From NCBI RefSeq assembly GCF_030013595.1, contig NZ_CP122769.1: DNA of 64,000 bases. One strand, given 5' to 3'. This stretch comes from Escherichia coli (GTDB taxonomy: Bacteria > Pseudomonadota > Gammaproteobacteria > Enterobacterales > Enterobacteriaceae). Each line of letters starts with the position of its first letter. Positions within the stretch are counted from its first letter, which is position 1. The position numbers are program-made. Of the stretch, positions 35,901 through 38,900 are shown in pieces.

Positions 35901-38900
35901 GATTTACACTCAGTGCATTACGGATGCCGCCCGCTTCTTCGGAATTGATGCCGAACTGGTTTTTACGTTGTTTGACAATGAAGGCGGTAAGGTTGGTACT
36001 TTCAGCAGGAATACTAACGGCACTTATGATATTGGCCCGATGCAGATCAACTCATCCAATCTGCCTGAAATAAAAAAGCATTTCCCGACTGTAACGTGGC
36101 GGGTTCTGGCTTACGATGCTTGCGCTAGTTTCTGGGTTGGAACATGGTGGCTCTACAGAAAAATTGTTGATCGCAAGGGCAATGTGTTTGAAGGGATTGC
36201 AGATTACAACAGCAAAACCCCAAAGGTACGTGCAAAGTACATATTTAACTTCATGGTAAAGTACAATCGCCGGATCCAGCAGCGTAACGGGATGGGTGAG
36301 CTTTATCAATGGACCCAACAACCTCCTCGATACAATGGCCATATAGCTAAAAATGTCCCGGAGCAAAACCCGACTCCTGTTGTTAAATAAATTCAACCTG
36401 ATATTACAGAAGATCATCGAGTAGCTTGGGTACCCCCCCGCAAAAAATTCGCATAGACTCAGGGGTAATAAATTGTCTTTTTCTGCAAGAAATATATTTA
36501 AGATTCTCTCTTCTTTCTTGATGCAGAAAAGCCCTCTTCATGAAGAAGTATGTGTTCCTGAAGAAACAACAGCTGGTTTATGGGGCCCTCTCCCTGATTC
36601 GCATGTCGTGCTTTTCTTAGATTTCGATGGGGTTTGTCACAGGTGCAAAAATGAAACCTTTGAGCGAATGCCATTGGTGGAAAAATTACTGGATAAATGC
36701 CCTTCCATGGTGATTGTCATCTCCAGTTCGTGGCGTGAATGTGCCAGTATAACTTACCTGAAATCTCTTTTCCGGCTACCTTATAGAGACAAAGTCATAG
36801 GTGCTACCGATTCGGTATATTTAAAACCTAATCAGTCAGGTGTGCGGGCTGCTGAGTGTGAGGACTTTGTATTTTCACATCGAGTTAAAGCATTTATCTG
36901 CCTTGATGACGACGAATCATTATTCCCGGTCGGTTATCCACATTTGCAAAAAACCAATTATTACACCGGCCTCACCGAATCTGATCTTGCAGCTCTTAAC
37001 ACCAGGTATCATCTGCTTATGAAACGTTGGGCTTCCTGAATTAAAGTAACTTTTACGGAGAGCATGCCCGCATTATCAGTTCTATGCTTCTCCATTTCTG
37101 CCCCGGGTCAAAGCATTGCACAGTTGGAAGAAAACATGCCGGTCTCTTAAGCTTGCTGCTCAGTTTGGTTCCGGTGCTGAAAAACCTGCCAACGGTGCTT
37201 TAGGAATTCAGTATTGATGGGTTTACGCAGCGGCTTAATAAACTCTCCTTGATATGCCGCTAAATCATGATCTACCGCCAAAGCTTCAGCGAGAATGTTA
37301 ACCTCCAACGTCACCGGATGAATGGCAATCATGTTTGCGTCGAAAAGATCGTGTATATCATGGCGTAAGAGCAACCCATTTGTATAATGGTCTACTCCTC
37401 CGTTACGATGCTCCATCAGATGAGCAGCCTCAGTGCGCTGGCGCAGTCTAGAGCCTGTAATCACACATTGGTCATAACAGTTGTTGCGGACGGCTTCTGC
37501 AAATGAGGCCTGATCTGGTCGTGTCTCGACAGTTGTCTTACTACCCTTACGCTTACCCGGTACAGTAGTTTCATCAGGAATATTCGGCTGAAGCTCCTTT
37601 TCTTCTATACCATCAGTCTTCATAGCGACCATAATCGCGGCCGGTGGAGATTTAGGCTGATCTTCCTGCGATCTTTCGCGGCCACCAACTGGATACCCTA
37701 GAAAACCCTCAATGATCTCTAGTGGAGGTAATGTAGCGTTTGAACGTGCATAAATAGCGAACTCTGCGGCACGTCCGCCGGGAATATATCTACGTACCAG
37801 TATTGGAAGAGAGGCTTCTTCATCTGGTTCCTCTTTTTCCGACAGGATTATTCGTTCGGTGAGACGGGCTGAATTTTTTTTCATTTCACTCAACAGTCTA
37901 TTGCGTTCTTTTACCTTTCGGTCATTATCCTCCAACATCTTACGATGACTAACCTTAGCCAGATGGTCTTCCAGTTCCTGTATATATTCGGGATCGATAG
38001 TGTCAATTAGACCGAACGCCATCAACCGCTCCCCCCTTGTTTTACAAGATTCTAGCCGAACGCGAATGTACTCCTTACGCTTGGCCATCAAATGTTCTTT
38101 TTGTTTTTTTTCTCGAATTACACGGAGCTGAGTATTGTAATTAGAATAAACGGTTTCGCTATTCTGCTCTGTCTCTAGAGCAAATTTTTGTAGGTGTTCA
38201 CGTAGTTTTTTACGGGTATTTTTGGGGGCATGCATTACGGTACGCTCAATGTATGAGCCTGTGCAGCGTAAAGAAAGTACAGTTTCAGCATGGGAATAAC
38301 CAGCATTGAGACGATAGCGGGCAATTTTAAGCAAATTATTAAAGTGTGCACCATTACATATACCTAGTTCTTCCAAGACACGACGTTCTCTATCATTAAT
38401 AGATGGATGGTTAATATCTTTTACTTTGTTTGCCATGTCCTGTGTCTCAGTGCCTATTCAGCCGGAACATCTACTACATAAAGAACGAGATTGTACAGAA
38501 ATCAGCTAAGTTTATGAATAAAAAAGGCCGCAAATTTATACTTTGCGGCCTTCACTGTTTAACACCATATTTTAGTAAATACGTTTAATTTTCATTAGGT
38601 TATATTTGAAACTCACCTACCTTTTATTTTCATTAAGCCACTGATCCGCTTTATCGACACGTGACTGGTAAGGCTCATTTGTGTTGCTCAGCTCTGACTT
38701 CATGTACTGAATGAATTCATCTGCTTTCTGAGGCCCAAAGCGTGGGTCATCCGTCAATTGCTGCCGGATAGCCCTTTCAGAGTTCTGCGCTGCATTCGCA
38801 TAAGTCGAAACGCCGTCGCTGCTAATACTCTGATACCGGTCACTTACAGCTGCGACGCCATCAGACATCTGCATGTGATTAAGGACTTTACCCTGGAGAG

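Follow-up and report, generated by a model that had tools for sequence, protein, structure and literature searches.

A variable slot next to trhG in IncHI2 plasmids holds an accessory HNH_2 nuclease gene with a probable role in defence

Genes at the locus

We analysed a 64,000-nucleotide stretch of Escherichia coli DNA (contig NZ_CP122769.1; the whole of it is called the window below), and within it a gene for a 429-residue protein with an HNH_2 nuclease domain and the neighbouring gene for a HAD_SAK_2 phosphatase-like protein. The window is IncHI2 plasmid DNA, and is 100% identical to many conjugative plasmids of E. coli and Salmonella typed as IncHI2A, MOBH and MPF_F. The genes concerned, and the parts of the nuclease, are as follows.

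36473..37039, plus strand: HAD_SAK_2 phosphatase-like gene (Pfam E=9e-20; HAD motifs I–IV invariant; 2,015 plasmid records contain it, with IncHI1 and IncHI5-like plasmids among them)
37147..38436, minus strand: HNH_2 nuclease gene, 429 residues (open reading frame; RefSeq WP_001284752.1; Pfam match; ratio of nonsynonymous to synonymous divergence, dN/dS, of 0.11–0.35 against the allele of a third IncHI2-like plasmid, L007)
37150..37554, minus strand: HNH_2 beta-beta-alpha-Me nuclease domain, residues 295–429, with H339, N353, H362 and D366
37555..37686, minus strand: predicted disordered, acidic and proline-rich linker, residues 251–294, which holds the recombination breakpoint against L007 (~37564)
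37687..38436, minus strand: N-terminal helical module, residues 1–250, proposed as a specificity or sensor module
38617..42570, minus strand: trhG (TraG_N family, 1,317 residues), last gene of the trhF-trhH-trhG block and the conserved right neighbour

An earlier note on this DNA, made from the sequence alone, had placed both open reading frames at these same positions. It had also called the genes divergent, which was mistaken: they are convergent, tail to tail, and 107 bp apart. The nuclease gene lies on the same strand as trhG and 180 bp downstream of it, and beyond trhG follow trhH and a TraF-like gene; to the left of the HAD gene are genes for a lytic transglycosylase, for DsbC-like and DsbA-like proteins, and umuDC. 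The pair had been described as embedded in the conjugation region. This is correct in that it sits at the outer edge of the Tra1 transfer region, and incorrect in that it lies directly past the trhG terminator, outside the transfer operon.

The C-terminal HNH_2 nuclease domain

The HNH block quoted in the earlier note is present and falls within a significant Pfam match to HNH_2 (PF13391), which covers residues 324–373 with E=3.6e-10 and spans the whole model (positions 1–66 of 66). All homologues carry this domain. Conservation of the catalytic His and Asn had been proposed as a check on the assignment; H339, N353, H362 and D366 proved invariant across an alignment of 44 homologues that takes in Streptomyces and Kitasatospora proteins. 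These HNH_2 proteins are the most distant sequence matches (E 1e-4 to 1e-6), and the source of one of them describes it as a putative restriction endonuclease. Further invariant residues (Q309, F312, C324, A337-A338 and G354) were recognised in 10 full-length homologues and then in the 44 sequences. The 429-codon frame is intact with all of the catalytic residues in place, and an AlphaFold model computed from the alignment of 44 sequences (mean predicted local distance difference test score, pLDDT, 85.5) contains the beta-beta-alpha-metal fold of HNH_2 nucleases as a well-defined domain at residues 306–428.

A profile of the family matched one solved protein, VcaM4I (6YEX), with E=2.5e-5. VcaM4I is an EVE-HNH type IV restriction enzyme with key residues H224, N241, D250 and D254 (PMC7897488), and these align with H339, N353, H362 and D366, respectively. 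By structure, the nuclease domain is likewise closest to type IV restriction enzymes, and its nearest structural relatives are all dependent on DNA modification. From its sequence the C-terminal domain is a clear member of HNH_2, and the protein is predicted to be an active nuclease. The public RefSeq label of WP_001284752.1 is 'HNH endonuclease signature motif containing protein'.

A rare N-terminal module and a disordered linker

In the AlphaFold model the N-terminal module consists of a four-helix bundle resembling a helix-turn-helix (HTH) domain (residues 15–69), two long helices (72–130 and 149–193, pLDDT mostly 85–97) and a three-helix bundle (210–246); these are followed by a disordered linker at about residues 250–305, with pLDDT below 50 for 257–304. 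The predicted long helices make the charged, probably coiled-coil N-terminus of the earlier note plausible, and they probably dimerise.

Few proteins share this module. When a profile was run against 1.84 billion representative proteins, it matched 8 clusters, of which two are N-terminal fragments of the window protein itself and the remaining six carry an HNH_2 domain; this domain is of a more divergent subtype in two of the six (P0049 and P0050). Pfam detected no domain in residues 1–261 of 8 family members, and the module had no match to the PDB by sequence. By these sequence searches the N module is rare and without named relatives. Strings of the 'R-x-R-L-x-A-F-G' type had raised the possibility of internal repeats, which was discarded when hhalign gave less than 1% probability between sub-blocks of the module.

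The slot between the HAD gene and trhG

The nuclease gene occupies a cassette that differs among IncHI plasmids. The boundaries of this cassette, its control signals and the adjoining DNA are given here.

36250..37029: left flank with raised divergence from plasmid R478 (~9% against a background of ~1%), from the mismatch profile and three-way identities
37030..38519: variable cargo cassette of 1,490 bp, from breakpoints against R478, annotations and junction alignments
38490..38518, minus strand: sigma-70-like promoter candidate (TTCATA-17-TACAAT), 54 nt before the start codon of the HNH gene, a consensus match only
38523..38553, minus strand: intrinsic terminator of trhG (12-bp stem with 6 G-C pairs, followed by a T-run), common to R478 and marking the right cassette edge

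The breakpoints relative to R478 fall at window positions 37029/37030 and 38519/38520, with homology to R478 starting again at 38520. In the R478 lineage the cassette is replaced by 1,728 bp that encode, on the opposite strand, an unrelated 353-residue HNH protein (PF01844, E=1.8e-4) and a YrhA-family protein. In IncHI1 and IncHI1B plasmids the slot is empty and the HAD gene stands directly next to trhG, with gaps of 246 and 371 bp, respectively; the 429-residue protein is also not encoded in the IncHI5-like plasmid. Because the slot is empty in IncHI1 and holds other cargo in R478, the HNH gene is accessory cargo and not a transfer component. This agrees with the description of the protein in the earlier note as no obvious part of the conjugation machinery; its absence from IncHI1 and IncHI1B speaks directly against a structural transfer component kept in all IncHI plasmids.

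Plasmid records with the window allele number about 510 and those with the R478 allele about 430. Among 5,426 complete E. coli genomes, the window cassette was found in 222 (~4%) and the R478 pair in 11. The plasmid copies of the HNH gene (~510–515) are nearly all at least 99% identical, and no second copy of either the HNH or the HAD gene was found within the window. IS1, ISVsa5 and IS903B insertions occur in the neighbourhood of the cassette, and a published conjugative plasmid has an mcr-1 transposon inserted between the HNH gene and dsbC (PMC5748712); the region tolerates disruption.

Since the trhG terminator is followed by a promoter-like site inside the cassette, the HNH gene looks like a transcription unit of its own, and co-transcription with trhG was rejected on the same predicted signals. 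We also considered whether the 107 bp that separate the convergent genes might form a structured RNA or act as a bidirectional terminator. This stretch folded no better than shuffled sequence (z-scores of +1.35 and +0.73), and Rfam gave no match in this region.

Two related gene sets were observed outside the window. The HNH and YrhA-family genes of R478 (locus L002, 9355–10932) recur with 68% DNA identity on an integrative conjugative element at tRNA-Phe of E. coli C5 (L018, 6545–8171). Members of the YrhA family serve HNH toxins as immunity-like partners, and the module may be a nuclease toxin with its immunity protein, carried by conjugative elements. A second IncHI2 paralogue with an HNH_2 domain is found next to the plasmid hns gene of pUTME-9-1 (L017, 4797–5405). 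It has 202 residues, is 44% identical to the C-terminal domain of the window protein, abuts a mer transposon and appears to be N-terminally truncated.

Exchange of the slot and of the N-terminal module

Divergence between the window and R478 is about 1% over the backbone, rising to about 9% at 36250–37029, which includes all of the HAD gene, and to about 13% at 38520–38750. The window, R478 and L007 stand at roughly equal distances from one another over the HAD segment (88–93% identity), whereas outside it the window and R478 are 98–99.5% identical. The raised divergence of the flanks and the three-way equidistance indicate that the slot has been exchanged, together with its flanks, by homologous recombination between fairly distant IncHI2-like plasmids. 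A divergence gradient of this kind is expected equally from co-conversion and from ordinary homologous exchange.

L007 carries a 402-residue allele of the HNH_2 gene, and the comparison of the two alleles separates the protein into two parts. The HNH domain has a backbone-like synonymous divergence (dS 0.29, compared to 0.34 for trhG), while synonymous sites in the N module are saturated (proportion of differing synonymous sites, pS, 0.74) and the protein identity there is 50%. The switch point lies near residue 291, within the disordered linker, and the BLAST high-scoring segment ends at 37564. Throughout the gene dN/dS is 0.11–0.35, pointing to purifying selection. Rapid positive selection as the source of the N-module divergence is excluded by the saturated synonymous sites and the dN/dS of 0.11. 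The comparison indicates instead that the divergent module belongs to an old allele that was recombined in, with replacement of the module taking place within the linker; such replacement fits with the N module being a specificity determinant.

Genomic contexts of the homologues

Full-length homologues are 36–42% identical to the window protein and reside in unrelated mobile or island settings. In Salmonella they lie immediately beside type I restriction-modification (R-M) operons at two different loci, one of which also has a gene for Mokosh MkoC (E=0) and a second HNH_2 gene. On an Enterobacter contig the homologue is accompanied by Septu (PtuA, 3e-138; PtuB, 3e-42), PifA (2e-238) and CcdAB. 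Others are found in an integrative island of Pectobacterium and on a phage-like 100-kb contig; sequenced phages have relatives of the C-terminal domain only. The homologues are thus associated with defence islands.

In two of these loci an open reading frame of about 90 codons ends 4–10 bp before the HNH_2 gene: at 7716–7991 of L003, the plasmid-like Enterobacter contig, and at 7725–7997 of L005, the Pectobacterium island. The two products are 41% identical to each other, have an HTH-like C-terminal half and may be controllers. We considered such a protein as an obligatory partner of the nuclease and rejected it, as the reading frame is absent from the window and from the type I R-M loci and its product has no likeness to the N module. 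The phage-like locus has a 90-codon reading frame upstream as well, which is unrelated to the pair.

Comparison with known nuclease systems

The window protein resembles the type IV enzymes TagI, VcaM4I and ScoMcrA in being one polypeptide that carries its HNH nuclease at the C-terminus, and the neighbouring genes at 33–45 kb include no methyltransferase. It differs in that its 429 residues include no recognisable modified-base reader domain. VcaM4I (EVE-HNH) and TagI (SRA-HNH) use a base-flipping reader of the PUA superfamily; the window protein has in its place an all-helical module of ~250 residues, for which no relatives were detected beyond a tiny enterobacterial family. At the second moniker position the window protein has the canonical His (H362) and VcaM4I has Asp. 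ScoMcrA-type enzymes dependent on phosphorothioate or 5-methylcytosine (NF045808; Streptomyces proteins with HNH_2 and PF26345) have the HNH_2 domain in common with it; the window protein is without a sulfur-binding or SRA domain and scores far under the cut-off of that family.

SruGXI and HhiV4I are type IV enzymes dependent on N6-methyladenine in which a winged helix is joined to an HNH domain (PMC11037411). The window protein is like them in fusing a small helical domain of DNA-binding type to an HNH nuclease in one chain, and unlike them in having no sequence or fold match to the DpnI-type winged-helix domains. The winged-helix-HNH enzymes are toxic in Dam+ E. coli, whereas E. coli and Salmonella maintain the window gene stably. 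From this stable carriage in Dam+/Dcm+ hosts it follows that any signal sensed cannot be G6mATC or Dcm methylation.

Two other kinds of element invite comparison. The R478 cargo occupies the same slot and is also a nuclease-based module on conjugative elements; it differs in having two genes of unrelated sequence on the opposite strand and no HNH_2 domain. Homing endonucleases combine HNH or HNH_3 domains with NUMOD, AP2 or IENR modules, none of which was detected in the window protein, which has HNH_2 only; like free-standing homing endonucleases, its gene is an intergenic insertion with insert-free alleles in IncHI1 and IncHI1B. The 429-residue protein is accordingly a variant of the sensor-HNH design that stands outside the named enzyme families and the catalogued defence systems, a variant because it is type IV-like and yet lacks one defining feature, a recognisable modified-base reader.

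A proposed role in defence

We consider the protein to be an accessory, separately transcribed restriction or defence nuclease of a single polypeptide, built on the type IV plan and carried as cargo in one IncHI2 lineage, and would put the probability of this reading at slightly above one half (about 0.55). The three parts of the protein, namely the helical N module, the disordered linker of ~50 residues and an HNH_2 domain of the TagI/VcaM4I/ScoMcrA class, suggest how it might work. By analogy to VcaM4I and TagI, the protein would dimerise and stay auto-inhibited. The N module would recognise some feature of incoming phage or rival-plasmid DNA that is absent from the Dam+/Dcm+ host and from the plasmid itself, and recognition would license the HNH domains to cut; neither a methyltransferase partner nor an immunity gene would be needed. 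The contents of the slot are exchanged by homologous recombination through its flanks, and the N module has itself been swapped across the breakpoint in the linker. Nuclease activity, dimerisation, the feature sensed and the defence phenotype are inferred. Of the three roles that the earlier note had offered, defence is the best supported, homing is disfavoured by the domain subtype and the contexts, and exclusion is without support.

Several results weigh against this assignment. The association with defence islands is seen for the homologues, while the neighbours of the window copy are transfer and backbone genes, and guilt by association rests here on about six independent contexts. No modified-base reader (SRA, EVE, YTH, sulfur-binding domain, NEco or winged helix) was found in the N module by Pfam, PDB sequence search or fold, making any dependence on modification an analogy only. 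PADLOC-DB v2.0.0 yielded no system-specific model, its generic 'HNH' models alone giving partial matches (E=1.7e-5 and 0.029), and the NCBIfam model for restriction of phosphorothioate DNA (NF045808) scored 16.5 bits, far under its cut-off of 180 bits. A literature search found no functional study of, or experiment on, the 429-residue protein.

A bolder version of the same proposal is conceivable, and we hold it as tentative. The HTH-like, long-helix N module may define a kind of single-gene defence family not described before, whose members pair an exchangeable helical sensor with an HNH domain of the TagI/VcaM4I class and read no modified base. Alleles of the sensor would be shuffled across the linker in the manner of type I R-M target-recognition domains, and the slot would be a locus for swappable nuclease 'weapons', with HNH_2 or HNH plus YrhA as the alternatives.

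The rival that survives best, although we regard it as rather unlikely, is a toxic nuclease of the abortive-infection type. Here the N module, rather than reading DNA modification, would respond to a protein of phage or plasmid origin or to a structure in DNA, and would free an auto-inhibited, non-specific HNH domain to kill or arrest the cell. The module does resemble no known reader of DNA modification, its long helices are typical of protein–protein interaction or oligomerisation, and the defence-island contexts fit equally well. Moreover, VcaM4I shows that an HNH domain of this class turns into a toxic, non-specific nuclease after removal of its inhibitory linker (PMC7897488). Nothing favours a protein trigger over a DNA trigger, however; an HTH-type bundle appears to make up the first 70 residues, and the nearest structural relatives of the nuclease domain are the modification-dependent enzymes described above.

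Less probable again is a selfish, free-standing endonuclease of the homing type, which would cut plasmids that lack the gene or have the other allele and be copied into them by recombinational repair. Homing was raised earlier for this HNH gene (PMC5748712). The gene does lie between two conserved genes, with insert-free relatives in IncHI1 and an alternative HNH gene in R478, and the raised divergence of both flanks, with three lineages equidistant, resembles co-conversion tracts. Ordinary homologous exchange of a cargo slot explains the flank gradient equally well, though, and the unit swapped between alleles is the N module rather than the whole gene. In addition, the domain is of the HNH_2 restriction-enzyme class rather than HNH or HNH_3 with NUMOD or AP2, and the homologues occupy many non-homologous defence-island contexts instead of one conserved target locus.

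A role linked to conjugation, as an exclusion nuclease acting on related incoming plasmids or in the processing of transfer DNA, and expressed with the Tra1 genes, is very improbable. It would draw on the position of the gene at the Tra1 edge, downstream of trhG and on the same strand, and on the finding of the alternative R478 cargo on an integrative conjugative element. Against it, plasmids typed as conjugative lack the gene (IncHI1 and IncHI1B) or have other cargo in its place (R478); a strong terminator separates it from trhG; homologues lie in chromosomal islands and on the phage-like contig without transfer genes nearby; and insertion sequences and mcr-1 transposons insert in its neighbourhood in plasmids that still conjugate. 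Equally remote is a hitch-hiking gene without current function, for instance what is left of an older system in decay: the near-identity of the plasmid copies leaves within-lineage conservation uninformative on selection, and a truncated HNH_2 paralogue does exist elsewhere on IncHI2 backbones, but the intact frame with its catalytic residues, the dN/dS between alleles, the promoter-like site and retention in 222 of the 5,426 complete E. coli genomes all argue against it.

Resistance genes such as mcr-1, CTX-M and oqxAB have a major vehicle in IncHI2 plasmids. Should the protein prove active as a restriction or defence nuclease, cells with the plasmid would gain immunity to phages or plasmids, with consequences for phage therapy, plasmid competition and plasmid persistence; if the slot is indeed a weapon locus, its contents would influence the range of phages or rival plasmids able to live alongside the plasmid. 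The sensor-HNH design known from type IV enzymes would gain a new sensor module from this family, and the natural alleles, which differ mainly in the N module, offer a ready domain-swap experiment. The state of the slot (empty, HNH_2, or HNH plus YrhA) also serves as a simple marker of IncHI lineage and as a tolerated insertion site. The HNH endonuclease label was already public; what is new is the accessory status of the gene, the three-state slot, the module swap at the linker, the association with defence islands and the rarity of the N module. We regard the result as useful, testable and relevant to widespread resistance plasmids, and as of moderate interest, no great surprise to a specialist.

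The HAD_SAK_2 protein

The reading frame of the HAD gene has 188 codons from a TTG start; the RefSeq start lies 16 codons later at an ATG and gives 172 residues. HAD_SAK_2 (PF18143) matches over the full length, and the 'DFDGV' string that the earlier note had read as a HAD-like motif falls within this significant match. The residues of motifs I (DxDxV), II (S/T), III (K/R) and IV (DD), namely D50, D52, S84, R125, D145 and D146, do not vary among 7 homologues of IncHI type. The gene is present in both IncHI2 lineages, in IncHI1 (65% identity), in IncHI1B and in IncHI5-like plasmids (43–45%), and is kept beside the lytic transglycosylase and Dsb genes of IncHI plasmids. The two genes had been treated as one unit; as the HAD gene is present with or without the HNH cargo, it is independent of it. 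Judged by sequence, the protein is a conserved phosphatase of the IncHI backbone and no partner of the HNH nuclease. Its gene is probably co-transcribed with that of the lytic transglycosylase, from which it is separated by 82 bp with no terminator found.

HAD_SAK_2 is the HAD phosphatase domain of the 'Swiss Army Knife' RNA-repair proteins, and the Pfam family name suggests by analogy a polynucleotide phosphatase, with the 3'-phosphatases of T4 Pnkp type as functional analogues. The window protein is a stand-alone domain without a kinase or ligase partner. Sequence searches detected no solved relative, and a literature search found no functional study of HAD_SAK_2. The homologue of the IncHI5-like plasmid p12208-IMP (L009, 4842–5444) has an N-terminal hydrophobic stretch, GVVFAASVVILILSAMLY, that suggests a membrane anchor; the window protein is only weakly hydrophobic there. 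The hydrophobic stretch raises the possibility that the HAD protein works at the membrane, together with its Dsb and transglycosylase neighbours.

A palindrome shared by IncHI backbones

An 11-bp palindrome was found at the left boundary of the cassette.

37043..37053: palindrome AAAGTAACTTT, 4 nt past the HAD stop codon, one of 10 copies in the window

Copies of this sequence, AAAGTWACTTT, begin at window positions 18599, 32485, 34950, 37043, 43955, 47015, 47410, 52271, 54001 and 58903, compared to 0.07 expected from shuffles. Several lie right at the 3' ends of genes (dsbA-like, dsbC-like and HAD), and two are in the divergent intergenic region between Tra1 operons at 46939–47552. In the IncHI1, IncHI1B and IncHI5-like loci copies of the palindrome keep their positions, and none of the 11 non-IncHI loci retrieved contains it. 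No extended conservation was found flanking the copies, and a literature search for AAAGTWACTTT gave no match. From its distribution the palindrome looks like an operator for a dimeric IncHI regulator, or another backbone signal.

Other observations in the window

The annotation of start codons and frames for two small genes adjacent to Tra1 is inconsistent between records. At 33410–34021 and 34081–34503 the window has full frames of 612 and 423 nt, as in R478, and on identical DNA RefSeq gives shorter open reading frames of 348 and 261 nt (L001, 5875–6222 and 6282–6542). In the accessory part of the window, an Rfam match to RNA-OUT (98.8 bits; 11720–11789, minus strand) overlaps the start of a 402-residue open reading frame at 11782–12990, an overlap that indicates, at the sequence level, an element of IS10/Tn10 type.

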